The notes: a model not told the origin generated them from the letters alone. Shown: positions 1 through 51,323, numbered from the stretch's first letter. The stretch: 64,000 nt of DNA from Pseudomonadales bacterium (GCA_965230515.1 OZ246007.1:3251012-3315011); one strand, 5' to 3'. Numbers and translations are program-made.

Positions 1-300
1 CCGGATTGCCAGCTATACAGAATCGATGGGATCGAACGCTTGCAAACCGAATGGTCACAAGGACTGCCGAACGATCCGGCGCAAGCCAAGCAGGTCGCGT
101 TATCGTACTTACAATCGCTGAATCCAAAGCGATATCGATCGCTCGAAAATGCGGCCAAAGGTTTGCTCAAGGCCCTGGAGTATGGTCTGAATCGTTATCC
201 CGCTATGGTTTTTGACAACCGTGCCGTGGTCTACGGCGTTCGGGATGTGGAACAGGCCAGTGGTTATTATCGGCAATGGCGTTCTAAGGTAAATGACTGA
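1..300 (+). CDS. ICE protein, PFL_4709-like, C-terminal part (5' end outside the window)
   Basis: Frame 1 is open from base 1 (PDCQLYRIDGIERLQTEWSQ...). The C-terminus ...YPAMVFDNRAVVYGVRDVEQA... recalls the small ICE protein that precedes the TraU-like gene. The stop overlaps the next ATG by 1 nt. Confidence 0.5.
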   Translation, partial: PDCQLYRIDGIERLQTEWSQGLPNDPAQAKQVALSYLQSLNPKRYRSLENAAKGLLKALEYGLNRYPAMVFDNRAVVYGVRDVEQASGYYRQWRSKVND

Positions 301-2659: not shown

Positions 2660-3017
2660 CATCCGATCAAGGCGAAAAAACTTTCTGCTATTAACCACCA
2701 TGGCCGTGTTGCTGACAGCACTGGTGGGGTATCTCCTGATGCATCGATTACAAACGGATTCCGTGCAATCCGTCCAACAAAGTATCGATACCTGGCGGAC
2801 GGCGCTAACAGCCATGCGCTGGATAGTGATCGCGGTCGTTGCCCTTGGCTGGAATCATCTGGTTGGGTGGCTGGCTGATGCAAAAATCCTGAGCCGGGCC
2901 AAAGCAAACCGACTAACAGGCTTACGCTTGCGCGTCGTCACTTGGCTGGTTTTGCTTGAATGGGTGCTAGGGCAGGGTGTGTGGGTCAATGTCATTGGCT
3001 TGATGGTTAGAGCTTGA
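2649..3017 (+). CDS. small integral membrane protein of the ICE transfer region
   Basis: 122 aa with hydrophobic helices (LLLTTMAVLLTALVGYLL; WIVIAVVALGW; VVTWLVLLEWVLG). Overlaps the end of the upstream gene. Alternative start at ATG 2700. Confidence 0.4.
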   Translation: MFNNIRSRRKNFLLLTTMAVLLTALVGYLLMHRLQTDSVQSVQQSIDTWRTALTAMRWIVIAVVALGWNHLVGWLADAKILSRAKANRLTGLRLRVVTWLVLLEWVLGQGVWVNVIGLMVRA

Positions 3018-3033
3018 TCATTGGAGCAAGGCA

Positions 3034-8800: not shown

Positions 8801-9034
8801 GTAGGGCAAACCTGTGATCGCAAGCTCGACCAAGTAGGTGATACGTTGCTCCACTTCCAGCGGCGAATAGCCGGGCGCTTCAGTATTAATCTGCACCTGT
8901 ACGTTGGTGATGTCTGGAACGGCGTCGATGGGCAGTTTTTGGTAATTCCAAACACCGAGTGCGCCGACAACGAGCACAAAAAACATCACCAGCCAACGAC
9001 TGGCGATGGAAAATTGAATCAGTTTATCGATCAT
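5891..9034 (-). CDS. czcA: heavy-metal RND efflux pump, CzcA type (Co/Zn/Cd)
   Basis: 1047 aa with 12-TM RND architecture. The N-terminus MIDKLIQFSI..RWLV and FIPNLDEGDIAIQALRIPGTSLTQS are characteristic of the CzcA rather than the CusA subgroup. Confidence 0.92.
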   Translation of the reverse strand: MIDKLIQFSIASRWLVMFFVLVVGALGVWNYQKLPIDAVPDITNVQVQINTEAPGYSPLEVEQRITYLVELAITGLPYVESTRSLSRYALSQVTVIFKKGTDIYFARNLINERLQQAKSDMPSGIEPVMGPVATGLGEIFHYAVHADDDARQANGEKYDATALRTLQDWVIRPQLRLVPGVTEINTIGGFEKEFHITPDPAQLLAVELTFDDIVDAVEKNNANVGAGYIEKNGEQYLIRAPGQVADIAAIQRVIVAHKDGIPITVADVAKVSFGKQLRTGAATLDGEETVLGTAVMLLGGNSRSVSEAVSAKLVEINKTLPEGVIAEPVYDRTILVDKTIATVQKNLLEGAVLVVVVLLVMLGNVRAALLTAMVIPLSMLMLMTGMVQTKVSANLMSLGALDFGLIVDGAVIIVENCILRLAGRQHQLGRTLKLDERFQTVFAATREVFTPSLISVLVVILVNIPILALTGVEGKMFTPMAMAVIMALLSALVLSLTFVPAAVALLLSGHIKEKDNLIVRQSKRAYTPILAWALKFRLAVLAGAVLFVIAIGGLATRMGAEFIPNLDEGDIAIQALRIPGTSLTQSLDMQFQLERAVLEIPEVKTYFSRVGTAEVASDPMGPNISDGYVMLKDHKDWPNPDKSKAQLLEDIQEKLALIPGNAFEISQPIQLRFNELISGVRSDLGVKVYGDDLDQLLKSGTEIAAVLNGIEGAEGVKVEQVSGLPILSIEANRPALYRYGLNVADVQDIIAAATGGEEAGLIFEGDRRFTIVVRVAEEIRNDLRALERLPVPLPQGGYVPLSEVATLTLAPGPNQISRENGKRRLVVSANVRGRDLGSFVADVQTQIEQQVALPPGYWLDFGGTFEQLQSASERLSLLVPITLVMIFALLMMTFGSAKDAALVFSGVPLALTGGVIALWLRDIPLSITAGVGFITLCGVSVLTGVMMVSAFRDRLNQGDDIDTSIRQGAMLRLRPILMVALVAALGFLPMALNTSTGAEVQRPLATVVIGGIISSTLLTLLVLPGLYRMAYRKQKNLVGNNEDIAAS

Positions 9035-9124
9035 AGTGTGGCCCTTTTATGGTCTCGCACAACTAACTTACCTAGTGCTGATGGCAAACAATGACGCGTA
9101 TTCAACGTATTCGGGTGAATGCGG

Positions 9125-10060
9125 TTAATGGCCATGTTCAGCATCCTCTTTGCCCATCTCTGATTTCAGAACAAAGCTGTTTTTCGAGACATAGGTTTCG
9201 TCGACGTCCAGCCCTGCCAATACTTCGGTTGACTCGCCATCGGTGTGCCCCAAGGTAACTGGGCGCGGTTCAAAGCCTTCTTCTCCTTGAACAAAAACAA
9301 CATGTTCTCCTTCTACAAGCTGTACCGCTTCGTTATGAATAACCAATGGGGCGGCCGTTTCAGACAGGGTAATTTCAGCATTCACAAAAAGCCCTGGTTT
9401 CCACAAATTGTCTGTGTTGTTCATCAAAACCCGTGCAATAGTGGCTTGGTTGTTGCTATTCCCTAATGGAGCGATGTAGATAATCTGACCTTCGCCAGTG
9501 ATAGGGTTGTTGGCGTTTTTGATACGAACCGTTTGACCTATCTGCGCCTTGGCCACGTCTTTGGGAAACAGTGAGAGGTCGACCCAAACGGTGGAGAAAT
9601 CTTCAACAACAAAGAGAACTCGATCGGCAGTTTGTTCGCCAATATTGGCATGACGTTGAGTGATCACACCGTTAAGTGATGAAACAACAGAATAGGCTTT
9701 CAAGCTTTCATTGGCTTCAACCGTGACTAGCGTTTCACCTTTACGAACCTGGTCGCCAATTTTCTTGTTGACCGAGCGAATGACGCCATCAAAGCGGGCG
9801 CTGACCGACTGTATTTGTTCTGCGTTGCTGGTAATAACACCATACACGGGTAGCGTTTCTCGAATATTTCCGGCACCAACACGAGAGAGGCCAATACCTG
9901 CATGCTTGATTTGTTCCTGGGTGAGCTCGATGTGGCCTTCTTCGTGCTCTTCTTCATCGCCATGACCGGTTTCAGCGAATGCCAGAGTGGACATAAAACA
10001 GAATGTGAGATAATAAATAAACTTGATGGCGGGTGATGTATTTACGTTATTTGATTTCAT
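9125..10060 (-). CDS. czcB: RND periplasmic adaptor (CzcB-like) with His-rich termini
   Basis: 311 aa with a signal peptide, GHGDEEEHEEGH near the N-terminus and EDAEHGH at the C-terminus. Barrel-sandwich hybrid-like core. Overlaps czcC by 4 nt. Confidence 0.85.
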   Translation of the reverse strand: MKSNNVNTSPAIKFIYYLTFCFMSTLAFAETGHGDEEEHEEGHIELTQEQIKHAGIGLSRVGAGNIRETLPVYGVITSNAEQIQSVSARFDGVIRSVNKKIGDQVRKGETLVTVEANESLKAYSVVSSLNGVITQRHANIGEQTADRVLFVVEDFSTVWVDLSLFPKDVAKAQIGQTVRIKNANNPITGEGQIIYIAPLGNSNNQATIARVLMNNTDNLWKPGLFVNAEITLSETAAPLVIHNEAVQLVEGEHVVFVQGEEGFEPRPVTLGHTDGESTEVLAGLDVDETYVSKNSFVLKSEMGKEDAEHGH

Positions 10061-11466
10061 TGTGCTGATCCTGGTAATTCGGTTGATTCACCATATCGCG
10101 TGGCGGACAAAGGTTCTGCTGTGAGCTGTTCGATTTCGGCGCCATACGTTAATGCGGATGAGGCGGATTCGATCAGAGTGCGTTTGGCGCCTAGCAATTC
10201 CTGTCTGGCGGAAACGTATTCCAGGTAACCGTAACGGCCACGCTGATACGCTGTCTGTATTTCTTCGAGCGCTTCTTCTAGCGCAGGAATAATGGTGGTT
10301 TGGAGTTCCTTCGCGGTGAGAATGGCCTGTTTTCTATTGTGGAATGCCCGAAATAATTGCGTATGCATGTTGAGTAGCGCCACTTCCTTTCGAACGAAGA
10401 TTTCGTTGCGTTGGGCAAGTGCAGTAGAGACAGCGCCAGAGTTTCTTTTCGATGAAAAGAGCGGCATGCTAAAACCGGCGACCAGGGCTGAATTGTCGCT
10501 TTCCTGAAAACGGCGTACACCGACCGACCAGCTGATATCAGCCCTTGATTGAGTTTTGGCAAGACGCACTTCCGCCTCTTTGAGTCGCTCTTCAGCAGCA
10601 AAGACCTGGATAGCCGGGTTCTTCTCCATTTTGGCATAGAGCCTTTCAAAGTCGACATCCGTACCAAAGTGAAACAAATCACCGTCAATGGCGGAAAATT
10701 TCGGCGAAGTTTCTCCCCAAAGTGCCGCGAGTGACACTTTCAGATAAGCGAGTTGCCGTTGAGTGGAGAGCAGTGTGAGTTGTGCTTGCGAGGCCGAGGC
10801 TTGCGCGCGTTTTACTTCTGCATCTGGTGTCGCGCCTGCGTTAGCACGCTCTTTCACGATATTTAGAGTCTGGCTGGCAAGTTCATTTGCTTCTTTAGCC
10901 AGGGAAACCCGCTCTTGTGCGGCTAGTGCATCCACATAGCGCCGAGTAACTTCACCCAGTAACGCCAACGATTCCACCTGCCTCTGCGCATCGAGAACCG
11001 AGCGAGCGTTAGAAACGATGCCCCTGCGGGCAGCGCGTTTATCGCCCATTTCCAGTACAGAAGAGAGCGAAACGGTGAGTTCTACGCCACCAAAACCGCT
11101 GAGTTCATCGGAGCCAGAGAAGTTCTCAGCTTCCAGGCCGAGTTCATAAGCTGGTTTCAAGTTTGCTGTTTCCAACTGTCCAGCCAGGGCTGTGTTGCGA
11201 AAGTCAAAAACCTTAAGGGAAGGATTCCGCTCTAGAGCACGCTTAAGTGCGGTGTTGAGTGTGAGTGTATTGTCTGTGGCCTCAGCATGAGCAAAAGAGA
11301 GTTGTCCGCCGAAAATCAGACCGATAAATATCAGTTTTCTAAAGCTGATTCGTTTAAATTTTGCGTTTGTTATAGGCGCAGAATTGGGTGGTGCAGTAGC
11401 TGCTATCCAATTAAAGATGGATAAGCTACTCAACAGTAAAGTAGCGACAATATTTCGCGTTTGCAT
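10057..11466 (-). CDS. czcC: TolC-family outer membrane factor (CzcC-like)
   Basis: 469 aa with a two-repeat coiled-coil-rich OMF pattern, immediately upstream of and overlapping czcB. The N-terminal start choice is uncertain because there are two hydrophobic segments. Confidence 0.82.
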   Translation of the reverse strand: MQTRNIVATLLLSSLSIFNWIAATAPPNSAPITNAKFKRISFRKLIFIGLIFGGQLSFAHAEATDNTLTLNTALKRALERNPSLKVFDFRNTALAGQLETANLKPAYELGLEAENFSGSDELSGFGGVELTVSLSSVLEMGDKRAARRGIVSNARSVLDAQRQVESLALLGEVTRRYVDALAAQERVSLAKEANELASQTLNIVKERANAGATPDAEVKRAQASASQAQLTLLSTQRQLAYLKVSLAALWGETSPKFSAIDGDLFHFGTDVDFERLYAKMEKNPAIQVFAAEERLKEAEVRLAKTQSRADISWSVGVRRFQESDNSALVAGFSMPLFSSKRNSGAVSTALAQRNEIFVRKEVALLNMHTQLFRAFHNRKQAILTAKELQTTIIPALEEALEEIQTAYQRGRYGYLEYVSARQELLGAKRTLIESASSALTYGAEIEQLTAEPLSATRYGESTELPGSAQ

Positions 11467-11568
11467 AAATCAAATTCCGATTGTAATGAATGGTCGTACA
11501 CAGTGATTAGCCTGTTACCGCTAATGGTTTGCAGTAACAGGTGTGAGCTGATAGGTATCAGAAATGAT

Positions 11569-11889
11569 TTATGCGTTTGGAGGAGGAGTCGGCGGTGCCT
11601 GTGCGAAGTTAAGGATATGTGGCTGGTAAAAGGCAAACTGTTGATCGGACATATCGCATTTCAGAATAGTGATATTACCCTCAATGCTGCCGGTATGACC
11701 GTGACAGCAATGTGAGCAGTGGTTGCTATCAGCATCTGAATCTATTGACAGTGATTCATCGTTATCCAGTACATGCGCGTGATCGTCTCCGTGCGTGTGT
11801 TCACCGCCGCCCAAAGAATCGATAGCACCTTCGATACCCATAAAGAGTAGCGAAAATATAAATAGATAAAGAATGGAATATCTCTGCAT
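11569..11889 (-). CDS. CzcI/DUF2946-like small secreted Cys/His-rich protein (copy 1)
   Basis: Leader MQRYSILYLFIFSLLFMGIEGAIDS, a His/Asp-rich linker, the cluster HCSHCCHGH and the tail APPTPPPNA. The start was chosen by alignment with copy 2. Alternative starts at 11898 and 11931. Confidence 0.55.
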   Translation of the reverse strand: MQRYSILYLFIFSLLFMGIEGAIDSLGGGEHTHGDDHAHVLDNDESLSIDSDADSNHCSHCCHGHTGSIEGNITILKCDMSDQQFAFYQPHILNFAQAPPTPPPNA

Positions 11890-11973
11890 AGAACCCATAC
11901 TAGGCCATCCTGTTTTGATGGGAAAACACAATTAATACCTGGTAGTTCAGACTATATTGCCCGATCAGATATC

Positions 11974-12405
11974 TTAACGCGCAATGTTTGATTCGTGCTT
12001 CGGAGGTGAAGCTGCCTCTAACTGGTTTTGATGATAAGCGATCTTAATTACGGCATTTGTAGGAATAGCTTTAGGAACGCTCGCCGAGAATCGTACTCCT
12101 CCTTTGCGAAATGCTCGTTTTGAGGGTGACGGGGGAAAATAGTTGGTTGTAGTCTCATACATCAAATCGCCTTCATCCGACCAAACTGCGATATCTATAT
12201 GCCCTTTTGGCAGTCCGTATCGCGAGCTTGCAGTCAATCGTCCAGATACAATTGCATCGGATTTGTTTTCTTCGAATTGTAATCGGCTAAAATGCCAGCG
12301 CTGATAATCAGTTTTGATAATTTTTAACAGCGGGGAATGATTGTTCGCTGACGCAGGCGCAATAAATGTCGTACATAAAAGGAATGCGAGAATAGTAAAT
12401 CTCAT
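11974..12405 (-). CDS. unknown secreted protein, paralogue of 15449-15874
   Basis: 143 aa with signal peptide MRFTILAFLLCTTFIAPASA. The beta-rich-looking core GHIDIAVWSDEGDLMYE...VIKIAYH matches the second copy by eye. Confidence 0.6.
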   Translation of the reverse strand: MRFTILAFLLCTTFIAPASANNHSPLLKIIKTDYQRWHFSRLQFEENKSDAIVSGRLTASSRYGLPKGHIDIAVWSDEGDLMYETTTNYFPPSPSKRAFRKGGVRFSASVPKAIPTNAVIKIAYHQNQLEAASPPKHESNIAR

Positions 12406-12480
12406 ATTGTTTCACCTAATTTGAAATAGCTAAGTAGTTGCCACGATACTAAATCGTAGCTCTTTCTAAGTTATTAAAAA

Positions 12481-12843
12481 TCAGGCTATAGGCGGGCGAA
12501 ACAAAGAAAATACTGGGGCTATTGGCAAATTGGATCGGTAGTCCGGTTGCAGCAGTTTCGTATGAGTCACACATAGCTGCATAAGATTTTCAGTTAGGTA
12601 GCAATGACATCCATGATTATGACAGTGTAGAAAACTTCCACACGAATCTTCCTGGTTTAAAGGGTCAGTAACACTAGGGTTGTCATCCAAATCACCCGTA
12701 AAGCTATTGCTGAAATTGCTATCCAAAATATGTGTGTAGCTTCCCCCGCGATGCAGTTCTCCAGCAGCAGAATCGACAGCGCTTTCTATACCCGTAAAGA
12801 GCAGAGAAAAGATAAACAGGTAGCAGGTAAACGATTTGAACAT
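12481..12843 (-). CDS. CzcI/DUF2946-like small secreted Cys/His-rich protein (copy 2)
   Basis: 120 aa with leader MFKSFTCYLFIFSLLFTGIESAVDS (near identical to copy 1), cluster CGSFLHCHNHGCHC and tail FSLFRPPIA. Lies 11 nt after the CDF gene. Confidence 0.55.
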   Translation of the reverse strand: MFKSFTCYLFIFSLLFTGIESAVDSAAGELHRGGSYTHILDSNFSNSFTGDLDDNPSVTDPLNQEDSCGSFLHCHNHGCHCYLTENLMQLCVTHTKLLQPDYRSNLPIAPVFSLFRPPIA

Positions 12844-12854
12844 AATTAATCAGT

Positions 12855-13493
12855 CTATACGACTTCCAAGTGTTCTGCACGTATTTCGCTAAATGCCAAG
12901 CGTATGACGTGAATGGCCGCACTAAAATTGAGGCTGGCTATGATGGCCGCGACGGCAAGGTCGGGCCATCGCGAAGACGTTGCAAAGACACCCGCTGCAG
13001 CGATCATGACCGCGATATTGCCAATCGCATCGTTGCGGCTGCACAGCCAGATAGAACGCATATTGCTATCACCTGCACGGTAGCGGTAAAGCAACACCGT
13101 AACAGCAACATTGACGATGAGTGCGAGTATGGCCACTGTGCCCATAACCGACGCTTCAGGAGCACTGCCGGTCAGCGCGCGATAAATAGCATTGCCAATC
13201 ACCCATAGGCCAAAAGCAGCCATGGTCGCGCCCTTAATCAGCGAGGCGCGGGCGCGTAAATGTAGCGCCATTCCCAGTACAAACAGGCTAATCGCGTAGT
13301 TGGCTGAGTCACCAAAAAAATCCAACGCATCGGCTTGCAGGGAGATCGAATCACCAATCTGACTGGCGATGATCTCAACCAAAAACATAGCTGCATTCGC
13401 GATAAGTGCAATCCATAGTACGCGGCGAAATACAGGATCAACGTTATTGTCTGCCGTTACGGTATCAGATGGACAGTTTGTACACCCTGGCAT
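12855..13493 (-). CDS. short cation diffusion facilitator-like transporter (TM domain only)
   Basis: 212 aa with six hydrophobic helices and CDF-type metal-site helices SLQADALDFFGDSANY and RNDAIGNIAVMIAA. There is no cytoplasmic C-terminal domain. The start overlaps the arsR-family stop. Confidence 0.75.
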   Translation of the reverse strand: MPGCTNCPSDTVTADNNVDPVFRRVLWIALIANAAMFLVEIIASQIGDSISLQADALDFFGDSANYAISLFVLGMALHLRARASLIKGATMAAFGLWVIGNAIYRALTGSAPEASVMGTVAILALIVNVAVTVLLYRYRAGDSNMRSIWLCSRNDAIGNIAVMIAAAGVFATSSRWPDLAVAAIIASLNFSAAIHVIRLAFSEIRAEHLEVV

Positions 13494-13831
13494 TAGTCGT
13501 CCTCCTCGGATTGATCCGGCTCGCCGATATGCGCCACCATATCCTCAATCACGCATTGGATATGTTCATCTGCTGCGACGTAGAAAACCTGTTTACCACG
13601 ACGTTCTGAACGGGCGATTCTGGCGGCTCGCAACAAACGCAAATGGTGGCTGACAAGGGATTGCGATAGCTCTAGCTTCTCGGCGATGTCCGATACGCTA
13701 ATTGGAGCGTGCAAGCAGGTTAGAATAATGCGCAGCCTGCTGGTATCCCCCATAAGGCGGAATAAATCGGCTAACTGCGATATCTCCTCCTCTGAACCTA
13801 TCTTTTTAAGCGGGTGTCTTTTTGTCTTCAT
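13493..13831 (-). CDS. SmtB/ArsR-family metal-responsive repressor (alpha5-site type)
   Basis: Start chosen at MKTKRHPLKK. The wHTH is VSDIAEKLELSQSLVSHHLRLLR. ADEHIQCVIEDMVAHIGE fits the DxHx10Hx2E alpha5 metal site of SmtB/CzrA-type sensors. Confidence 0.85.
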   Translation of the reverse strand: MKTKRHPLKKIGSEEEISQLADLFRLMGDTSRLRIILTCLHAPISVSDIAEKLELSQSLVSHHLRLLRAARIARSERRGKQVFYVAADEHIQCVIEDMVAHIGEPDQSEEDD

Positions 13832-13836
13832 ATTGA

Positions 13837-13892
13837 TGAATAAACATATAAATATATATTCATATGTTTGCACGATATACTAATTATGTCAA
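13837..13892 (-). promoter_or_regulatory. candidate promoter and SmtB-type operator of the minus-strand operon
   Basis: Interleaved inverted repeats TGAATA(13837-42)/TATTCA(13857-62) and AAACATAT(13842-49)/ATATGTTT(13862-69). On the minus strand TTGACA (13892-13887) is followed after 17 nt by AAACAT, which overlaps the repeat. Confidence 0.45.
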
Positions 13893-13926
13893 CTCCGAGT
13901 CTTTTCCAATATGAAATGAGCCGGAA

Positions 13927-14585
13927 GTGGGGGGCGTATTTCCATTATCAAATGAGCCTGAAATAATCACTGAGTTTGTTAATGATCGGAGGATGAAAAC
14001 GACCATAAGCTTAGAACAACTAATAACCATTGAAGCCGTTAGCCAATTTCTTGAGGGTACACAGGCAGTCGCCTTTAACTTCGCCATGTACAAACAGGAT
14101 CGGTATAGCTGGATATAAAAAGACTTTGATAAAGTTTCAGTGTCGGCAACTGGGTAAGACGGATAAAGGGATCCTCACACGTTATCTGATGAAAGTCACG
14201 GGCTACTCCCGCGCCCAAATCAAACGTCTGATACAGCGGTACCGCCAAACCGACAAGCTGTCTTGCTCAAGACGGCTTGCCGTAATCGCTTTAAGCGCCT
14301 TTACACAGATGTAGACAGATGCAGATATACGTTTATTGGCAGCCATGGATGAACGCCACAACCAATCCAGCGGGCCGGTACTCAAAAAGCTCTGCGAACG
14401 CGCCTATCAGCGGTTTGGCCAATCCCAGTATCAGCGTCTGGCCGGGATCTCCATCTCTCACCTGTATAACCCACACCAAACCACCACCTACCAGTGGCAA
14501 CGCTATACCTTGACCACAACACGCCGCAAGGGGGTGTCATCAGTCCGCTACTGGTGAACCTGTTTACGCGACGAACGTATTCCAC
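13927..14585 (+). pseudogene. degraded DDE (rve-type) transposase, N-terminal fragments only
   Basis: Three consecutive frames carry ...SLEQLITIEAVSQFLEGTQAVAF..., ...KTLIKFQCRQLGKTDKGILTRYLMKVTGYSRAQIKRLIQRYRQT... and ...AAMDERHNQSSGPVLKKLCERAYQRFGQSQYQRLAGISISHLYN.... This matches remembered IS transposase N-termini. There are at least 2 frameshifts and the catalytic core is missing. Confidence 0.6.
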
Positions 14586-14947
14586 CAGTTCTGAGGAAAA
14601 TAAAAGCTAAGCATTATGACTTGGATCTAGAAATTGTACGCCGAGTACTGAGAAATCTTTTTGACTTCGAAATACTAGAGAGAGACAAGCACAATAATTA
14701 TAAGTTGGGGCTCAATTTCATAGCATGGCAGAGTGATAACTCGTGAACATTTTCAAATTTTGTCAATTAAGAGGTGCCCTGATATTTAACTTGGATTGAT
14801 GCGCGTATGATAAGAAAGGTGGTTAAAAAATGTAATGAAAACTATATACTGCTATAATAGCTCCGATGAAGCGTTATTAAAATTGAACTTAATGCTAATT
14901 CGCAAATCGAAGCGGTAGATATTATTGAGTATGGCGATTTTATTTAG

Positions 14948-15367
14948 GTGAAGTTAAAAAACACAGCGATAATAATGGTTTTTATGTTGTTCTGCCAACA
15001 GGCGGGAGCAGTTGCTGTGAACCTTGTAAAGACAATTCCTTTTGAAAATGAAACTGAGTTGGCTGTGCAGACCGATGCTGCCTGTCATGGCAACTCTTTG
15101 ACAGAGAGCGCTTCCGACGTCAACGAACTTACACTTTTACATAGTCACAGCAATACCGCTCAGAAGGGTGAATCACAGTACTCAGCTTTAACCGAAAATT
15201 GTTGCGATGTAAGTTGTCAATGTTGTGTTAGTGGTTGCCAGTCAGTGTTAGGTGGTGGATCAGACCAAAATCAGCGTACGTCACCCACAGGCCCAGAAGA
15301 TAATTATTCATTTGTGGTTCCGAAACTGCTGCCCAGCTCATTTTTCCGCCCCCCCATTATTTCTTAA
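14948..15367 (+). CDS. CzcI/DUF2946-like small secreted Cys-rich protein (copy 3)
   Basis: 139 aa with a GTG start, leader KLKNTAIIMVFMLFCQQAGAVA, cluster CCDVSCQCCVSGC and tail SSFFRPPIIS. Confidence 0.5.
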   Translation: MKLKNTAIIMVFMLFCQQAGAVAVNLVKTIPFENETELAVQTDAACHGNSLTESASDVNELTLLHSHSNTAQKGESQYSALTENCCDVSCQCCVSGCQSVLGGGSDQNQRTSPTGPEDNYSFVVPKLLPSSFFRPPIIS

Positions 15368-15448
15368 TCCCTAGGGCAATTGCGCCCAACGAATTATTAG
15401 ATCTGTTGTTGCCAGCAGGTTTCTATTCCCGTATTTGAGGATTATGAG

Positions 15449-15874
15449 ATGAAAACTTCCTATATAAAAATTGGTTTTATCGCACTTTCCATGAGCGCCT
15501 TTTCTAACGTTGCTTTTGCCAATCATCCATTGGATACAAGTATCAAAATTGATCGTGATAGCATACGAGGAGTTCGCTTGGGTCAAGTTCAATTACGTCA
15601 TTTAGCTGATGGCGAGTATCGGCTGAGTGGTGAGGTCAGGCGACGTCAAAATAACCCGGTACCGATGGGGCATTTTGACTTGATGGTGTCTGATCAAAGT
15701 GATCATGTGATTTTTGAGGATTCAGAATTTTACTGGCCACGAATCGTAAATCGTCGATACCACCACCCTTCAAAATTTGTTTTTACTTTACCGGAATCGA
15801 TCGCTACCCAAGCTGAATTACAGCTGAGTTTCCATAAAGACAAGCTGGCTAAACGGCCTAAGCCAAACCACTGA
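15449..15874 (+). CDS. unknown secreted protein, paralogue of 11974-12405
   Basis: 141 aa with signal peptide MKTSYIKIGFIALSMSAFSNVAFA, GAGGA-like SD upstream and core GHFDLMVSDQSDHVIFE...ELQLSFH. Confidence 0.6.
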   Translation: MKTSYIKIGFIALSMSAFSNVAFANHPLDTSIKIDRDSIRGVRLGQVQLRHLADGEYRLSGEVRRRQNNPVPMGHFDLMVSDQSDHVIFEDSEFYWPRIVNRRYHHPSKFVFTLPESIATQAELQLSFHKDKLAKRPKPNH

Positions 15875-15939
15875 TTTAGGAAGTCAGAGGTTTCTCTAGC
15901 CCAACAAGCAAAACTAATATTGATATTTGAGGATCTATT

Positions 15940-16449
15940 ATGATCAATAAAACCATATTCCCATTTATGCTCGCCATACTGCTATCGGCAGCTACAAATA
16001 TTGTGAGTGCGGAATCAGCTATTGCCAAATCTGCCGTTGATCACGCCAAAAATAAAATAATGATGGTATACAAAAACCCAAAATGTGGTTGTTGTGATAA
16101 ATGGGTAAAGCATATCAACGACTTCGGGCTTTTGAGCCAAGTTGTTAGTGGTTCAAATGTAGCTACGATCAAATCCAATTTTGGCATTGAGCCACGTTAT
16201 CGCTCTTGCCATACCACGATTGCTGATGGCTACGCTTTTGAGGGTCATATCCCAGCGCACATTATTCAACAATTTCTTATTGAGAAACCCAAAGATGTTG
16301 TTGGTTTATCGGTACCCGGTATGCCGGCGGGTAGTCCAGGCATGGAAATGGGCGATCGGCACGATGACTATGATGTGCTGTTGTTAAAAAAAGATGGTAG
16401 CTCAGAGGTTTATGCTCATATAAGTGAGACACATAAGGCAGATCATTGA
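15940..16449 (+). CDS. copG: DUF411 / CopG-like periplasmic copper-resistance protein
   Basis: 169 aa with a signal peptide, the CxCC motif KCGCCDKW, conserved CHTT and the Met-rich loop PGMPAGSPGME typical of DUF411 proteins. Confidence 0.8.
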   Translation: MINKTIFPFMLAILLSAATNIVSAESAIAKSAVDHAKNKIMMVYKNPKCGCCDKWVKHINDFGLLSQVVSGSNVATIKSNFGIEPRYRSCHTTIADGYAFEGHIPAHIIQQFLIEKPKDVVGLSVPGMPAGSPGMEMGDRHDDYDVLLLKKDGSSEVYAHISETHKADH

Positions 16450-16476
16450 ATCTTTATCAACCAGGAGAACATACCT

Positions 16477-17022
16477 ATGTACAAATTCATTATTACGTTA
16501 ACAGCATCGACAGTTATCGCTTTGTCGGCCTTTGCCGAAGGAAAGCATAATGATAACGTGAGTGACCATAACAGCCATGCTAAATCTTCCCATGAAGGTC
16601 ATGGTGCCCATCTGCAAGCACATAATCATGAAACAAAAAAGGGAGCAGTGGGGTACCCTGCCAAACCTTCCAACTCTCAGCGCTCCATTGATGTCAGCTT
16701 GAGCGATAATATGCGGATTAGCTTTTCTGAGGATCTTACCGAGCTCAAATCAGGAACGGTGATTAACTTTGTGGTGACCAACGAAGGTGAAATTTCCCAT
16801 GAGTTTTCTATCGGCAACCAGGCTGAGCAGAAAGCACATGCAAAAATGATGCGGCAAATGCCAGGTATGGTGCACAACGATGGTAATACAGTTACGTTGG
16901 CACCAGGTGAAACCAAACGTTTGGCGTGGCACTTTGTCGGTGATGATCAGGTTGTATTTTCCTGTAATATCCCCGGCCATTTCGAGGCGGGCATGTTTCG
17001 AATAGCTTCGTTGAAACTGTAG
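16477..17022 (+). CDS. periplasmic cupredoxin (type-1 copper protein) with a His-rich N-terminal region
   Basis: 181 aa with a signal peptide, a His-rich stretch (SDHNSHAKSSHEGHGAHLQAHNHE) and the type-1 Cu ligand pattern HEF...CNIPGHFEAGM. Confidence 0.75.
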   Translation: MYKFIITLTASTVIALSAFAEGKHNDNVSDHNSHAKSSHEGHGAHLQAHNHETKKGAVGYPAKPSNSQRSIDVSLSDNMRISFSEDLTELKSGTVINFVVTNEGEISHEFSIGNQAEQKAHAKMMRQMPGMVHNDGNTVTLAPGETKRLAWHFVGDDQVVFSCNIPGHFEAGMFRIASLKL

Positions 17023-17452
17023 TGATATTGACATGGCAATGGCAACTAAAGTACATCGAAGTAGGGAAGTGGATAGCGAGCTAAAAATGATCGCCACGTG
17101 TGATTTCACTTCAACTCGAGACATGTTGTGTGTTACTGGTCGTCAATTACCACCGATAACCTGATTAGTTGAATTTCTAACCTGATCTAGAAGAGTAAGA
17201 AAGCTATCTGTTTGAAAACAAATAGTTTTTGACTGTATGAAAAAATACTTCGAAAGTGGTATTCGTAGAATAGAAGCTACTTTCATTATTTGAAAATATT
17301 GACTTATGTCAATCCTGGAGACAGATTTTTCTAATATGGTCATAATTCCTAAAAGCCGTAACGGCTATTGATCAAAACATAGAGAGAGCTAGTGTCTAAA
17401 TCGGGATAAAACTCAGACGTAGGCTGATTAATAGCTTAGAAGGAGTAAATAT

Positions 17453-17860
17453 ATGGTTCGTTTAGTGGGTACAGTATTAGTTATCTTGGGGTTGATTTTT
17501 CAACCGCTGATGGCTGCTATGCCTATTGAAATGGCCGATCACGGGACGGATACCATGGCAACTATTAATGTTGATGAGACAGCCCTTGTGGATGGGCATA
17601 CATACATACATGATCAAAAAGTCGGCAATAAAGCAGCTGAAGAACCCTGTCATGGGGGCGCTGCGGAAGACGGATCAACATCTGAAACTCATGACGGTTG
17701 CATCACTGTTGGAAACTGCTGTGGTGTTTGCGTGGCTTCAATTAGTCATAACCTGATTATTTCCTCTAATCCACAAATTAACATGCATATTGTTGAAAGA
17801 GCCGAACATCTTGTTCTTGGTATTCTTTCATCTATCTATCACCCTCCTAAACACGCCTAA
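17453..17860 (+). CDS. CzcI/DUF2946-like small secreted Cys/His protein (copy 4, most divergent)
   Basis: 135 aa. GGAG SD upstream, leader MVRLVGTVLVILGLIFQPLMAA, a His/Asp-rich linker, CHGG...CITVGNCCGVCV and tail SSIYHPPKHA. Confidence 0.45.
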   Translation: MVRLVGTVLVILGLIFQPLMAAMPIEMADHGTDTMATINVDETALVDGHTYIHDQKVGNKAAEEPCHGGAAEDGSTSETHDGCITVGNCCGVCVASISHNLIISSNPQINMHIVERAEHLVLGILSSIYHPPKHA

Positions 17861-18089
17861 TTTATCCGAAAAGGCGTTATTACGCCCAAAATTTCGGAAT
17901 CCCTAAACATTAATGTATTGATCTAGACCTTGTGTCTGGGTTTTAGGGCTTAGCCAAAATCCTCTGTCGTATGTAATGCGAGCGTCGTTAGCCTTTAAAC
18001 GGCCTGGTGCAAGATTAATGCAGAGATAACGAGTTGATTTTGACTAAAAATTGAGCGCCACACTTGGCGCAACACAATGGAGAGTCAAC

Positions 18090-19340
18090 ATGAATATTAA
18101 GAAGTTAGTGAAGGTTGTCACCTATGGAACTCTAGCGGCTGTTAGCACTGTGACTATAGCGGCAGAGACGGATGTAGAGGCATTAAGCAAGCGTCTCGAA
18201 ATGATGCAAAAAGAGATGGATGAACTGAAGCACCAGATACAAATGAGCGCTAGCAAAAAGGACGTTCAGGCGGTCAGGCAGGAAGTAGCCGTCGCCAGGG
18301 AATGGCGCCAACCAGATACGCTCATACACATGGCGGGTTATGCTGATGTAGGTTACGCAGATACGGAGTCGAAGGACGGTAGTTTTAATGTAGGGACATT
18401 CGCACCGATTTTCCATTATCAATATCGCGACTTAGTGATGCTGGAGTCTGAACTGGAACTTGAGGTCGGTGATGATGGCGAAACGGAAATTAATCTGGAA
18501 TACCTGACCATTGATTTAATTTTGAACGACTATATGACTTTGGTCGGTGGTAAGTTCCTCAGCCCAATTGGTCAATTTAGGCAAAACATACATCCTTCAT
18601 GGATAAACAAATTGGCTTCAGCACCGCCTGGGTTTGGCCATGATGGCGCAGCGCCGGTTTCTGACGTTGGCTTTCAACTGCGTGGTGGGTTTCCAATAGC
18701 AGGCATACGAACTAATTATGCAATTTTTGTCAGCAATGGCCCTGAATTAAAAGCTGAGATGGAGGAGGAAGAGGGCGAAATTGAGTTCGAATTGGATGGT
18801 GTAGAGGCAGAAGGCTTTGGCACAGATAGCGATGGTGAAAAAACCTTTGGCGGTCGTTTTGGAATCATCCCCTTCTCAGGTTTTGAACTTGGATTCTCAG
18901 CCGCGAGCGGTAAGGTCACAGTAACATCCATTGAGGATGGTGATAGTGAATTGCTGGAAGGTGAAGCCGCTAGGGACTACGACGTAATAGGTGCTGATTT
19001 TAGTTGGCAGTGGAACGCGTTCAGCCTGCGTGGTGAATATGTCAAAACTGAAGTAGGTGATGACAATGGCGTGGGCACCGCAGCGTCGGCTGGAGCCGAT
19101 TGGGAAACCTGGTACACACAGGCTAGCTATCAAATACCCAAAACAAAATTGGAGTTAGTGACACGCTACACGGACTTTGATTCCCCGCACGACAGCAGGG
19201 ATCAAGAGCAATGGGCGTTTGGCATTAACTATCTCTTTACCAACAATGTGATTGGTAAGCTCAGCTATGAGTTTAACGATGCATTGAATAGGGATATTGA
19301 CCAGGATCGACTGTTGATTCAAATGGCCTATGGCTTTTAA
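18090..19340 (+). CDS. outer-membrane porin-like beta-barrel with an N-terminal coiled coil and an acidic loop
   Basis: ATG 18090 lies 7 nt after GGAGA. Signal peptide, then the coiled coil EALSKRLEMMQKEMDELKHQIQ, alternating beta-strand pattern and a C-terminal aromatic ...QMAYGF. The acidic loop is EMEEEEGEIEFELDGVEAEGFGTDSDGE. Confidence 0.6.
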   Translation: MNIKKLVKVVTYGTLAAVSTVTIAAETDVEALSKRLEMMQKEMDELKHQIQMSASKKDVQAVRQEVAVAREWRQPDTLIHMAGYADVGYADTESKDGSFNVGTFAPIFHYQYRDLVMLESELELEVGDDGETEINLEYLTIDLILNDYMTLVGGKFLSPIGQFRQNIHPSWINKLASAPPGFGHDGAAPVSDVGFQLRGGFPIAGIRTNYAIFVSNGPELKAEMEEEEGEIEFELDGVEAEGFGTDSDGEKTFGGRFGIIPFSGFELGFSAASGKVTVTSIEDGDSELLEGEAARDYDVIGADFSWQWNAFSLRGEYVKTEVGDDNGVGTAASAGADWETWYTQASYQIPKTKLELVTRYTDFDSPHDSRDQEQWAFGINYLFTNNVIGKLSYEFNDALNRDIDQDRLLIQMAYGF

Positions 19341-19354
19341 TCGGGAGAACTATC

Positions 19355-19972
19355 ATGAAACACCCAGCTAAAAAATACATTTATGCGCATGGCTTAAAAA
19401 TGATTCTCTTGCTCTTGGCTGCGAGCGCGGCACAGTTTGGTTACGCGTTTGATTACCCGGAAAAAGGTGATTTCGCCAAGGGAAGCCAGGCGTGGGCAGA
19501 TAATTGCACGCGTTGCCATAACATGCGAAACCCCGCCGACCTTCGCGATGATCAATGGATTACCACGGCATTTCATATGCGGATACGTGCCGGGCTAACG
19601 GGCCAGGAGACGCGTGACATTCTTACTTTTTTGCAAGGTTCAAATACAAAACCGGAGAGTTATGAGGGCAAAGGTGAACTAGCAATTTCAGAAAGTTCCA
19701 GAGGTGCTGCTTCAGGAAAAGAAATCTATGACGGTACCTGTATTGCTTGTCATGGTGCTAACGGGAAAGGAAGCCTGCCAGGCGTACCGGATTTTACGGA
19801 TAGAAATGGCAGATTGAGCAAACCCGATGGTGAGTTGCTTACCAACATGATTAACGGATATCAAAGTAAAGGAAGCTTAATGGCAATGCCTGCAAAAGGT
19901 GGAAACCCAGCGCTTTCCCCGGCTGATATGGAATCTGTTTTGCAGTATATCAGAGACCAATTTGCCAATTAG
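19355..19972 (+). CDS. periplasmic dihaem c-type cytochrome
   Basis: 205 aa with a signal peptide and two CxxCH haem motifs (CTRCH and CIACH). Starts 14 nt after the porin gene. Confidence 0.75.
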   Translation: MKHPAKKYIYAHGLKMILLLLAASAAQFGYAFDYPEKGDFAKGSQAWADNCTRCHNMRNPADLRDDQWITTAFHMRIRAGLTGQETRDILTFLQGSNTKPESYEGKGELAISESSRGAASGKEIYDGTCIACHGANGKGSLPGVPDFTDRNGRLSKPDGELLTNMINGYQSKGSLMAMPAKGGNPALSPADMESVLQYIRDQFAN

Positions 19973-19985
19973 TGGATGCAGATAC

Positions 19986-20013
19986 GGCCCCGGATTAAAG
20001 AATATCCGGGGTC
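19986..20013 (+). terminator. possible attenuating or terminator hairpin after the cytochrome c gene
   Basis: 9-bp stem GGCCCCGGA / TCCGGGGTC (one G-T pair) with a 10-nt loop. The trailing sequence is A/T-rich but lacks a clean T-run. Confidence 0.35.
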
Positions 20014-20039
20014 ATAATTATGAGGCCTACTGATAATGA

Positions 20040-20480
20040 ATGAGGAAGATCATGGATAGTTATAGCAGTTTAGAATTGCGAGATGATCACGCAGAAACCT
20101 ATTTAGAAAATGATTGCTCTCGGAGGTTAAGAAAGATTGTCAAGTATGGTGCTGTAATTATTTTAATAGGACTTTTAGCCGGGTGCTCTGGGAATCAAAT
20201 GCTACATGAATATTTCTATAAAGGACAAGTCATCGGGATCGAAGGCGATGAAATTGTTCTCTGTATAGGCAGCCGTGATGGTGCTGAGACGGGTCAAAAT
20301 TTGAGCGTTTATAGGTATATATATGAAGGCTCAATTACGGAAGGAGAAGAAGCTTACGGTAAAGCATATATCGGTCAAATTACGGTTAATAAGATTGTCA
20401 ATACTCATTTTGCTAGAGCGAAAATTATAAGTGGAAAGATTAAAAAATATGATGTGGCTGAGCCAGTGAGAGACGATTAA
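20040..20480 (+). CDS. hypothetical lipoprotein
   Basis: 146 aa with lipobox LLAGC. The real start is uncertain, because a GGAGG at 20122-20126 suggests a later non-ATG start. No family recognised. Confidence 0.45.
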   Translation: MRKIMDSYSSLELRDDHAETYLENDCSRRLRKIVKYGAVIILIGLLAGCSGNQMLHEYFYKGQVIGIEGDEIVLCIGSRDGAETGQNLSVYRYIYEGSITEGEEAYGKAYIGQITVNKIVNTHFARAKIISGKIKKYDVAEPVRDD

Positions 20481-20499
20481 TAAGTATAAGGAGAATTGA

Positions 20500-21978
20500 A
20501 TGAACTGGAGATTAATGGGAAAAATACCGATGAATAATGCTAAGCGCAGGCGAATAAACAATAGGGTAATAGTTAGATGGACGATTGTACTACTGTTTAA
20601 CCTTTCCCCATTGGCAGTGATTGCCAATGAGATAACTACTTCGCAATCGAAGGGTATCGAACTTAAGGCGGCGGTACAGATTGCGTTAATAACAGACCCC
20701 TGGTTAGTCGGGAGTAGGCATTCTCAGGATGCGCTAGAAGCCTTGAGTACTGCGGCAGGCGCCCTGCCTGACCCAAAAGTATCGCTAGGCATTGCTAATC
20801 TGCCGACGGATACATTTGACGTACAACAGGAAGCGATGACGCAGTCCAAAATCTCTGTATCGCAACTATTTCCTCGCGGTAACAGCCGGGCGATCAAGAA
20901 AAAACAGCTGGAAGTCATGAGCACTCAATATCCCTATCAGCGCCAGGACAGGGAAGCAAAGGTTGTGACCACGGTCAGTCAGTTGTGGCTGGATGCATAC
21001 AAGGCGCAGGAGAGCATTACGCTAATTGAACAAGATCGTGCGCTGTTTGAACAGTTGGCGGATGTCGCTCAAGCGACTTACTCCTCGGCATTTGGACGGA
21101 CGCGGCAGCAAGATATCGTACGCGCCGATCTGGAACTGACCCAACTAGAAGATAGGCTAACCCTATTAAAGCAACAGCAGGAAATGTCCCAAGAGCGGCT
21201 TTCGGAATGGTTAAACGGCTATTTTGTGGATCAATATTTGAAGGATAAATCGAGCGCTGGCGGTAAGAATGTTTCTGGCATAACACTGGCTGGTAACTTA
21301 CCCGATATTGCGTTGCTTAAACCCGAACTTATCGAAAGAGTGACGGGAGTTAGCCAACGATTATTAGCTGAGAGTTTTATGGAACATCCATCCATAAAAG
21401 CTTTGGAACAAAAGATTCAGGCAACCGATATCGGAATTGAGCTGGCAAAACAAAAGTATAAACCTGAATGGAGTATTAATGCAGCTTATGGCTATCGCGA
21501 TGACGACCCATTGGGGCGCGATCGATCTGATTTGTTTTCTATTGGGATCACTTTTGATCTGCCTATATTTACTGCAAACCGGCAAGACAAAGAGTTGCGA
21601 GCAGCGACCTCCCAAGCCGAATCTGTAAAAACGGAAAAGTGGTTGTTGCTCAGAAAGTTGATGGCGTCATATGAGTCCCTCAGAGTGCAGCTTGAGCGGC
21701 TTAATGACCGTCAAAAACTCTATCGATCGGAACTGCTACCGCAAATGCACATGCAGGCTGAAGCATCACTTACCGCCTATACCAACGATGATGGTGATTT
21801 TGCAGAGGCAGTTAGAGCACGTATCGCGGTATTAAATGCGGAAATTGAAGCACTGAGTATCGAAGTAGATAGGCAAAAAGTGATTACTCAACTGAATTAC
21901 CTTTTCGTTAGTCAACAGCAGAGCGCCGAGGCAATGCTAATTGAACGTTCTATGGTGCTGAAGGGGAAAAAACAATGA
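20500..21978 (+). CDS. cusC: TolC-family outer membrane factor (CusC-like)
   Basis: 492 aa. AAGGAG SD lies 7 nt upstream. OMF two-repeat pattern, directly upstream of cusBA. Confidence 0.82.
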   Translation: MNWRLMGKIPMNNAKRRRINNRVIVRWTIVLLFNLSPLAVIANEITTSQSKGIELKAAVQIALITDPWLVGSRHSQDALEALSTAAGALPDPKVSLGIANLPTDTFDVQQEAMTQSKISVSQLFPRGNSRAIKKKQLEVMSTQYPYQRQDREAKVVTTVSQLWLDAYKAQESITLIEQDRALFEQLADVAQATYSSAFGRTRQQDIVRADLELTQLEDRLTLLKQQQEMSQERLSEWLNGYFVDQYLKDKSSAGGKNVSGITLAGNLPDIALLKPELIERVTGVSQRLLAESFMEHPSIKALEQKIQATDIGIELAKQKYKPEWSINAAYGYRDDDPLGRDRSDLFSIGITFDLPIFTANRQDKELRAATSQAESVKTEKWLLLRKLMASYESLRVQLERLNDRQKLYRSELLPQMHMQAEASLTAYTNDDGDFAEAVRARIAVLNAEIEALSIEVDRQKVITQLNYLFVSQQQSAEAMLIERSMVLKGKKQ

Positions 21979-22012
21979 ATCAGAAATTAATTTCAATCAG
22001 GGGTTATTCATA

Positions 22013-23719: not shown

Positions 23720-23730
23720 AAGGGAATGAG

Positions 23731-51242: not shown

Positions 51243-51323
51243 TGCAGGCGAGAGTAAGGCGCATCAATCAGATCGTCTTCAGTCGCCACGGCATTATGGG
51301 CCGTGGAGGATGTAATACGTGCT

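Follow-up and report, generated by a model that had tools for sequence, protein, structure and literature searches.

Four CopL/CutF-like leader genes and candidate stop-to-start RNA clamps in a metal island of a Pseudomonadales bacterium

CutF, CruR and CopL were shown or proposed between 2019 and 2025 to be cis-acting, co-translationally exported metal sensors that work through ribosome stalling (PMC9973294; bioRxiv 10.1101/2025.02.05.636593; PMC12992588). In CutF of Rhodobacter capsulatus (cutFOG; DUF2946), a Sec signal peptide and a CxxxC motif are followed by the tail PEPEGPPPRL, at a motif-to-tail spacing of 45 amino acids (aa) that its authors stressed (PMC9973294). Once exported, the nascent chain binds Cu, which lengthens a stall at PPP that EF-P would otherwise resolve, and the stalled ribosome melts a stem-loop hiding the cutO Shine-Dalgarno sequence (PMC9973294; bioRxiv 10.1101/2025.02.05.636593). 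Secreted CutF is rapidly degraded, and CutF acts in cis only (PMC9973294). CopL of Xanthomonas/Stenotrophomonas (copLAB; NF033807) is a Cys/His-rich leader open reading frame (ORF) needed in cis for Cu-induced expression of the next gene (PMC9973294), while CruR of Bordetella pertussis has a RAPP motif, a spacer of 162 nucleotides (nt) and Rho-dependent termination (PMC9973294), and its arrest has been demonstrated in vitro (PMC12992588). CopL, CruR, SilD/CusD and CzcI, the last without a C-terminal proline motif, have been assigned to one superfamily with CutF (PMC9973294). Here we analyse 64,000 nt of a Pseudomonadales bacterium (GCA_965230515.1 OZ246007.1:3251012-3315011), hereafter the window, in which four small Cys/His-rich ORFs, M1 to M4, lie within 6.3 kb. 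A first-pass annotation, made from the sequence alone, had described them as CzcI/DUF2946-like secreted proteins of no settled function, each attached to a different export unit.

The statement on function is outdated, given the work on CutF, CruR and CopL of the same superfamily (PMC9973294; bioRxiv 10.1101/2025.02.05.636593; PMC12992588). We consider it rather probable that the four ORFs are CopL/CutF-like leader peptides, that is, cis-acting metal sensors that work as nascent chains and not as finished proteins; our confidence is higher for the family assignment and for the RNA clamp behind M1, and lower for metal dependence and for M4. An ORF check bore out the coordinates and strands of all four, which are given here with the two secreted proteins encoded behind M2 and M3:

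M1, 11569-11889, minus strand: 106-aa leader ORF directly upstream of czcC.
P143, 11974-12405, minus strand: secreted 143-aa protein, paralogue of P141 (BLASTP, leader heuristic).
M2, 12481-12843, minus strand: 120-aa chimeric leader ORF between a CDF gene and P143.
M3, 14948-15367, plus strand: 139-aa CopL-type leader ORF upstream of P141.
P141, 15449-15874, plus strand: secreted 141-aa protein (paralogy to P143, E 6e-10).
M4, 17453-17860, plus strand: 135-aa CopL-type leader ORF upstream of a porin-like gene.

The common architecture noticed earlier (leader, acidic/His-rich linker, Cys/His cluster, Pro-Pro tail) was recovered in all four, the leader by heuristic only. In each N-terminus, one or two Lys/Arg residues precede a hydrophobic core at least 12 residues long (mean Kyte-Doolittle 2.2-2.9), with small-residue (AXA-like) cleavage-like sites at positions 21-28. 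The linker is acidic and contains His in each ORF (net charge -6 to -12), and the Cys/His clusters occupy residues 57-65 (M1), 73-81 (M2), 85-93 (M3) and 83-93 (M4). M1 has the leader YLFIFSLLFMGIEGA, the His motif GEHTHGDDHAH, the cluster HCSHCCHGH and the tail APPTPPPNA-stop; M2 has the cluster HCHNHGCHC and the tail LFRPPIA-stop; M3 has the cluster CCDVSCQCCVSGC and the tail FFRPPIIS-stop; and M4 has the motifs CHGG, GNCCGVCV and SSIYHPPKHA-stop in this order. Two residues (M1, M2) or three (M3, M4) separate the last PP from the stop. The true start of M1 may lie 9 nt further upstream at 11898 (MGSMQRYS..., 109 aa), where AGGA stands 9 nt before the ATG; a related metagenome-assembled genome (MAG) has the M1 gene called at 109 aa. 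M3 starts with GTG, and M4 is preceded by a strong AAGGAG Shine-Dalgarno sequence.

The distance from cluster to tail is nearly fixed. Across 181 family proteins, the first Cys/His of the cluster lies a median of 50 aa before PP (interquartile range 50-52) and the last one 42 aa before it, with a standard deviation of 4 aa as against 15 aa for the N-terminal length, and 171 of the 181 have two or three residues after PP. In the window, the first/last distances are 46/38 (M1), 44/36 (M2), 50/42 (M3) and 48/38 (M4). By the argument already made for CutF, this spacing of 36-50 aa would roughly span exit tunnel and SecY channel together. The RAPP/RGPP motif is absent from the four tails; in M2 and M3 an Arg adjoins PP with no Ala or Gly between.

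The label CzcI/DUF2946-like did not hold up. None of the four ORFs matched any Pfam model at E <= 1, DUF2946 (PF11162) included, and neither they nor any of 15 M1-family members matched the NCBIfam CzcI models (NF045614, NF045615). The best model was NCBIfam CopL_fam (NF033807), at sub-threshold scores of 22.8 bits for M3 (E 1.1e-4), 16.9 for M4 (0.0075) and 16.3 for M2 (0.011), with no match for M1. Profile searches were needed because word-based searches gave only five relatives for M3 and one for M2. With the four ORFs and their homologues as query, an exhaustive profile search returned, at E <= 0.001, 159 representatives whose lengths run from 83 to 187 aa (mostly 95-160), with end-to-end matches and C-termini that nearly all read SL[FY]RPPIxx or [FY]HPPKHx. 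CopL_fam matches 132 of 149 scanned relatives at E <= 0.01 (best 2e-15), whereas DUF2946 matches two at the same threshold and the CzcI models match six, weakly. Among the 788 ORFs of the window, a hidden Markov model (HMM) of 121 relatives, from which the four window proteins were excluded, recovered M3 (1.7e-31, a score inflated by the two M3 orthologues in the model), M2 (2.1e-13) and M4 (2.5e-12), the next match having E 0.09; M1 went undetected by this model, and the profile search found no fifth copy within the 64 kb. In hhalign comparisons, M2-M3 (97.5%) and M3-M4 (91.8%) matched over the full length, M1-M2 (96.5%) over 43 N-terminal columns only, and M1 against the remaining family (88.7%) over 20 columns at the Cys cluster; M1-M3 and M1-M4 were not significant. 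With hhalign probabilities of 92-99%, M2, M3 and M4 are homologous from end to end and related to CopL. The earlier picture of one family of four therefore stands for a modular, metal-related family in leader position, but not for equal kinship, as M1 is tied to the others through the N-terminal half that it shares with M2 and the short match at the Cys cluster. The near-identical leaders of M1 and M2 are real (BLASTP E 5e-12) and limited to that half. A genome scan with M3 matched a single MAG, at two places. One is L001, the closest relative of the window, a locus in the Gammaproteobacteria MAG OFTM196 whose central 6 kb is about 99.5% identical. A first metagenome scan with M3 gave no match, nor did a plasmid collection searched by megablast with 11400-18000 and by tblastn with M1 and M4.

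Behind three of the leaders, the predicted fold of the free mRNA joins the end of the leader ORF to the start region of the next gene:

M1-czcC clamp, 5' arm, 11557-11574, minus strand: GCA-UAA-AUCAUUUCUGAU, the last sense codon, the stop codon and 12 nt beyond (minimum-free-energy and centroid folds, alifold on five loci).
M1-czcC clamp, 3' arm, 11463-11481, minus strand: AUCGGAAUUUGAUUU-AUG-C, the czcC start codon with the preceding 15 nt (folds, pairing in 16 loci).
M2-P143 clamp, 12407-12504, minus strand: the L-F-R codons, A-stop and UUU (12477-12504) pair with AAAUUAGGUGAAACAA (12407-12422) (fold, duplex).
M3-P141 clamp, 15357-15452, plus strand: UUAUUUC-U-UAAUCC (15357-15370) pairs with GGAUUA-U-GAGAUGA (15439-15452) (fold, duplex).

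The spacers from leader stop to next gene measure 102 (M1), 75 (M2), 81 (M3) and 229 nt (M4). The M1 helix, GCA-UAA-AUCA.UUCUGAU x AUCGGAA..UGAUUU-AUG-C, comprises 17 bp and takes in the czcC start codon (fold z -5.45), and its duplex of -19.8 kcal/mol (z -7.9) was equalled in 0 of 1000 shuffles. For M2, the 3' arm is the P143 Shine-Dalgarno sequence with the spacer and the helix encloses a small hairpin (fold z -3.85; duplex z -2.9, 13 of 1000 shuffles as good). For M3, the 5' arm comprises the last codons, the stop and 3 nt beyond, and the 3' arm is the P141 Shine-Dalgarno sequence and start codon (fold z -2.70; duplex z -2.8, 9 of 1000 shuffles as good); at the related loci L009 and L021 the duplex reached z -3.6 and, with pairing-preserving changes, z -3.5. 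In the minimum-free-energy folds, 17 (M1), 8 (M2) and 13 (M3) pairs link the two sides, while among 12 control same-strand junctions of the window ten had none, one had 1 and one had 9. The control with 9 pairs is an FtsH-like / MgtC/DUF4010 junction (51242-51303, plus strand; duplex -21 kcal/mol, z -2.2) that may reflect ordinary translational coupling.

The clamp recurs with 11-17 linking pairs in 20 of 22 related junctions (19 M1-type, one M2-type at L003 and two M3-type at L009 and L021), and L042 has a weak version of five pairs; the independent support is smaller than 22, because five loci may be contigs fetched twice (13 to 22 loci) and several M1-type arms are near-identical. At L003, where the junction stands before an OEP gene, the topology is the same (duplex z -2.0), and the divergent M1-type loci L035 and L044 form the same pairing with sequences and stop codons of their own. 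Of the cells in 16 alignable M1-type junctions, 86.8% are paired, against 29-43% when the partner is slid, and the non-coding arms of the M1 clamp are 73-77% identical, against 49% at the spacer centre and 49% at nearby third-codon positions. No intrinsic terminator was found on the coding strand in any of the four spacers, terminator and promoter scans gave no more hits than shuffled sequence, and Rfam had no family match across 11000-18500. Judging from the size of its footprint, a ribosome would sit over the 5' arms during termination or with its P site at the second Pro codon.

By analogy with CutF and CruR, we propose that each peptide would be exported co-translationally through SecYEG by means of its hydrophobic leader. 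When the ribosome reaches the PP/PPP codons, two or three codons before the stop, the Cys/His cluster would lie 36-50 residues back and, as this is about the length of exit tunnel plus SecY channel, would be just emerging on the periplasmic side. Metal bound there would prolong the pause at the proline codons. For M1 to M3, the paused or terminating ribosome would then occupy the 5' arm of the helix formed in free mRNA, so that the start site of czcC, P143 or P141 would be exposed and translation of the export genes raised; the direct target of M2 would be P143. M4, which shares the sensor anatomy but lacks a clamp, probably takes another route through its long structured leader, for example a CruR-like, Rho-dependent one. 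M1 and M2, with His+Cys clusters, would serve the Czc-type units as reporters of Zn/Cd/Co; M3 and M4, whose clusters are Cys-only, would signal Cu(I) to the CopG/CopI and porin-cusCBA units. The earlier suggestion of metal-specific clusters agrees with this, as cluster type tracks the likely metal: His+Cys before Czc-type genes and Cys-only before Cu units. The analysis itself shows profile-based family membership, purifying selection, the ruler, the conserved clamp helices and the invariant leader position; export-coupled stalling, metal dependence, the direction of regulation and metal specificity would follow from the likeness to CutF and CruR.

How close is this likeness? Judged by what Ozturk et al. 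2023 (PMC9973294) used to define CutF-like proteins, all four ORFs are shorter than 150 aa, have PP inside the last 15 residues, stand 75-229 nt upstream of the next gene and carry, in the mature part, a Cys/His motif some 45 aa ahead of the tail, and a predicted RNA structure shielding the downstream ribosome-binding site is found for M1 to M3 and not for M4. They share with CutF a putative Sec-type leader, the Cys motif before a proline run that is followed by two residues and the stop (CutF GPPPRL, M1 PPPNA), the position directly upstream of a metal-detoxification gene, and, for M1 to M3, an RNA helix over the next ribosome-binding site proposed to be opened by the stalled ribosome. They differ in that no Pfam DUF2946 match is detectable, the clusters are far denser than CxxxC, with as many as 7 Cys or a His/Cys mixture, the targets are RND efflux genes and small secreted proteins instead of a Tat-exported multicopper oxidase, and in the three clamps the 5' arm overlaps the stop codon of the leader itself. 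CopL provides the best-matching curated model for M2 to M4, but the scores of 16-23 bits stay under the cut-off of 40, M1 has no match, and the gene downstream of CopL is the copA oxidase. The likeness to CruR lies in the shared superfamily and upstream-ORF position, in a proline arrest motif at the C terminus and in Cu-dependent post-transcriptional control, and the 162-nt CruR spacer recalls the 229 nt of M4; nevertheless, CruR uses RAPP, does not depend on its signal peptide, works through Rho-dependent termination and regulates a TonB-dependent importer in the opposite sense. CzcI of Cupriavidus metallidurans is, like M1, a small protein encoded directly upstream of czcCBA. M1 thus occupies the CzcI position but is no demonstrable CzcI homologue, because the four ORFs and the 15 M1-family members all miss the NCBIfam CzcI models. 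SecM, VemP, MifM and ApdA/ApdP are exported nascent chains whose C-terminal arrest, modulated by the pulling force of the translocon, opens a structure masking a downstream start. They monitor the secretion machinery and not a ligand, use other arrest motifs and have no Cys/His cluster.

M1 belongs to a separate subfamily of more than 30 members, uncatalogued by Pfam and NCBIfam models (0 of 15 members matched by any), though it may already be in list D of PMC9973294. H-C-x-H-C-C-H-G-H and A-P-P-T-P-P-P-N-[AV]-stop are invariant in it even at 30-40% overall identity, and a second His motif, GEHPHGDxYAH, is also kept. Residues 8-24 of the leader (11818-11868, minus strand), YLFIFSLLFMGIE[GS]A[VI]DS, are far more strictly conserved than is usual for signal peptides and include an invariant Glu. 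An AlphaFold prediction from a 15-sequence M1 alignment gave only a leader helix (residues 2-23; predicted template modelling score, pTM, 0.20), which is weak evidence against a folded mature protein. At gene-called loci, M1 directly precedes OEP-CzcB-CzcA (Pfam), often followed by a P-II-like gene; other fetched loci have a secreted-looking ORF downstream. The spacer from M1 to the next gene is 71-118 nt at every fetched locus with a readable downstream gene, while the upstream side varies (ArsR-CDF, a MerR-regulated CDF plus methyltransferase, or two CDFs). The common arrangement is ArsR-CDF-M1-czcCBA, with M1 starting 10 nt past the CDF stop. A small P-II-like (PF00543) gene follows czcA where the sequence reaches (L001 471-791, L003 12022-12336, L005 12103-12318 and other M1- or M2-type loci).

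M2 combines two of these lineages. Residues 1-43 share 74% identity with the N-terminus of an M1-family protein (E 5e-19), and residues 42-120 align with the CopL-type protein P0022, whose leader differs (E 1e-12); P0022, itself of M2 type, directly precedes an OEP-CzcB-CzcA unit. M2 is a chimera of an M1-type N-terminal half (leader and His motif) and a CopL-type C-terminal half, with the breakpoint near residue 42. In the window, an ArsR-CDF-M1-czcCBA operon would then have taken up an M2'-P143 segment by recombination in the 5' half of M1, which suggests recombination between leader-gene subfamilies when that segment entered.

The junction behind M4 is of another kind:

M4 spacer, 17861-18089, plus strand: conserved, structured 229 nt from M4 to the porin-like gene (folds, four-locus comparison).

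It is predicted to form four hairpins, the first beginning 7 nt after the stop and the last stopping 9 nt short of GGAG in the porin Shine-Dalgarno sequence. Two candidate pairings were rejected as too weak, one of 4 bp between the M4 Pro codons (CUCC) and the porin GGAG and one of 7 bp, AU-rich, between the M4 stop region and porin codons 5-7. Across four loci the spacer is near-invariant, and more conserved than the M4 coding sequence, despite a dS of 0.49 for M4. Its counterparts lie at L045 802-1048, L046 715-943 and L009 6430-6648; that of L045 carries extra tandem CTAGAC units in the second hairpin and is 17 nt longer than in the window.

Several readings compete with nascent-chain sensing. 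That the ORFs are chance or decaying frames in the spacer DNA of a mobile island is highly improbable, and we regard it as already refuted. It could draw on the zero Pfam matches of the four ORFs, on the few M2 and M3 homologues of word-based searches and on a ratio of nonsynonymous to synonymous rates (dN/dS) of 0.9 for M3 against L001, a value from only 23 substitutions. The near-identity of L001 makes this comparison uninformative, so diverged orthologous loci were used in its place, and there dN/dS is 0.07-0.19 for M1, 0.26-0.28 for M3, 0.36 for M4 and 0.18-0.20 for P141. The ORFs are thus conserved as coding sequence under purifying selection (0.07-0.36), whose absence the first-pass annotation had named as grounds for dropping its proposal; furthermore, the 159 family representatives match in full length to the C terminus and synteny is kept across related loci. 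We also hold it unlikely that the cleaved mature peptides are the functional form, as periplasmic Cys/His metal binders that buffer metal, hand it over or bind a sensor or pump, although dense, conserved Cys/His clusters behind signal-peptide-like leaders would suit such a role, the second His motif of the M1 family lies far from the tail and is unneeded by the ruler model, CzcI sits in the same superfamily without a proline tail, and existing annotations of CzcI and 'CopL family metal-binding regulatory protein' say as much. A free binder, however, has no reason to keep its strongest conservation in the last 7-9 residues and fixed distances to cluster and stop; no fold was predicted for M1, secreted CutF is quickly degraded and works only in cis, and the clamp links translation of the ORF to the next gene. 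The earlier idea of a metal-sensing, chaperone or pump-gating element accordingly survives as far as a modular, metal-related family in leader position is concerned; the invariant PP tail, the fixed ruler, the lack of an M1 fold past the leader helix and the stop-to-start helix point to a cis-acting nascent-chain sensor instead of a mature chaperone or gate.

Plain translational coupling, in which any ribosome at the stop opens the clamp and the peptide senses no metal, seems to us quite improbable. The clamp geometry by itself yields coupling, an 11-nt spacer couples M2 in turn to the CDF gene, and the metal input could come wholly from the nearby ArsR and MerR regulators; but purifying selection on cluster, leader and PP tail, the fixed cluster-to-PP ruler and the tie of the family to metal genes would all be left unexplained. 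For M4 only, it is possible, though we would not favour it, that the position of the ribosome at the stop selects between competing RNA structures or sets Rho access in the spacer, as in CruR, and so controls transcription into porin-cusCBA and not translation initiation. A clamp-free 229-nt spacer, a first hairpin within reach of a terminating ribosome, the near-invariance of the spacer while M4 diverged, and the use of Rho by CruR with its 162-nt spacer speak for this. Against it, no Rho-utilisation site or attenuator was identified in the spacer, compensatory changes affect only 2 of 73 predicted pairs, and the spacer could hold the promoter of the porin operon; a CruR-like route and an internal promoter are both possible. 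For the nascent-chain sensor itself, a number of points also count in the other direction. The stalling, export and metal binding of M1 to M4 are argued by analogy, and the signal-peptide call is a heuristic based on basic residues, hydrophobic core and small-residue sites. The PP contexts F-R-P-P-I, Y-H-P-P-K and P-P-P-N-A differ from the arrest-proven RAPP/RGPP and from the GPPPRL of CutF, and the CutF tail alone was not a strong staller in a reporter (PMC9973294). The ruler-and-stall model explains neither the N-terminal His motif of M1 nor its unusually conserved leader. The M2 and M3 clamps are modest (p about 0.01), the M1-type clamp is kept mainly by invariance, with double changes in 2 of 17 pairs only, and the M4 spacer has 0 linking pairs (duplex z -0.6). 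Finally, the window proteins score below the curated CopL_fam cut-off of 40 bits, and M1 was found by no family model.

The genes around the leaders are as follows:

czcC-czcB-czcA, 5891-11466, minus strand: Czc-type RND efflux, the unit behind M1 (Pfam OEP, BSH_CzcB/CzcB_C, ACR_tran).
ArsR/SmtB repressor gene and CDF transporter gene, 12855-13873, minus strand: head of the minus-strand unit (Pfam/NCBIfam).
CopG (DUF411) and CopI cupredoxin genes, 15940-17022, plus strand: behind M3-P141 (DUF411 3e-23; CopI 4e-45).
Porin-like gene, dihaem-type cytochrome c, 146-aa lipoprotein-like ORF and cusC-cusB-cusA, 18090-26850, plus strand: behind M4 (ORF and Pfam).

The order is ArsR, CDF, M2, P143, M1, czcC-czcB-czcA on the minus strand, with M2 starting 11 nt past the CDF stop, and M3, P141, CopG (DUF411), CopI, M4, porin-like gene, cytochrome c, 146-aa ORF, cusC-cusB-cusA, MerR-type gene, P-type ATPase on the plus strand. 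Since the junctions from ArsR to czcA are tight, the minus-strand operon plausibly joins transcriptional sensing by ArsR to periplasmic translational sensing by M2 and M1. The gene placements given earlier are correct, but what matters is the downstream gene, which is P143 for M2 and P141 for M3; association with metal exporters, the other point on which the earlier proposal had been made to depend, is published for the superfamily, OEP/RND genes being the commonest downstream neighbours of 5,334 CutF-like proteins (PMC9973294). Because P143 and P141 are paralogous, M2-P143 and M3-P141 are two copies of a two-gene cassette, which the first-pass annotation had not noticed. Neither P143 nor P141 has a Pfam match. 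P141 is predicted as a seven-strand beta sandwich (predicted local distance difference test score, pLDDT, 64.5) with conserved His26, Gly-His75-x-Asp and a C-terminal His, and has no Foldseek match to the PDB at E <= 0.001 and no PDB sequence match; P143 is likewise predicted as a seven-strand beta sandwich with His26, G-H-x-D and a C-terminal His. Such a P14x gene stands directly behind a CopL-type leader each time (window 11974-12405, minus strand, and 15449-15874, plus strand; L009 4094-4516; L021 10510-10935). The order M3-P14x-DUF411-CopI-M4 is retained in L009 and M4-porin-cytochrome in L045 and L046, whereas at L021, the second locus of the MAG that holds L001, M3-like and P141-like genes head OEP-CusB-CusA directly.

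The metal island is carried as cargo on a conjugative element, with TraU and TraG_N genes at the 5' end (window 300-4599) and further cargo at 27423-61149 (a CopA-type P-type ATPase behind a MerR gene, PhaC, phosphoketolase, FtsH and a fatty-acid cis/trans isomerase). The island has a GC content of 42-49%; the first 4 kb of the window have 55-58% and the sequence past 40 kb has 50-56%. A divergent region of 1.07 kb (13874-14947) separates the ArsR gene from M3 and has short ORFs (e.g., 14030-14314) that look, from their translation alone, like remnants of transposase or helix-turn-helix genes. CusB (22013-23719, plus strand) has a long C-terminal extension of repeated His/Met-rich units (MDHSQHQ...), and in its L001 orthologue this extension gives a CusF-like domain match.

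The kind of system and its link to RND pumps are already known. New are the four paralogues within 6.3 kb, two of them in series in one operon and one chimeric, as well as the M1 subfamily in the CzcI position, the quantified ruler, the stop-overlapping clamp and the recurring leader-plus-P14x cassette. A far-reaching reading, which we offer only tentatively, is that two sensing layers act in series, ArsR/MerR at transcription and four exported nascent-chain sensors gating translation. If so, M2 and then M1 would be two nascent-chain sensors in series within a single operon, in the M1 subfamily we would have the first exported arrest peptide that responds to Zn/Cd/Co, M2 would be evidence for modular recombination of leader halves with sensor/arrest halves, and the stop-to-start clamp and 50-residue ruler would be general design rules of the class. 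Experiments on the CutF/CopL class have so far concerned copper only (CutF, CruR, Xanthomonas CopL). The island offers four natural paralogues with different metal clusters and targets, one of which is tied to Zn/Cd/Co efflux and unrecognised by domain libraries. With the M1-czcC clamp as a simple readout, the roles of leaders in the CzcI position, the basis of metal specificity and the generality of stalling become testable, and the proposal would account for many "hypothetical" ORFs before RND metal pumps in marine Gammaproteobacteria.

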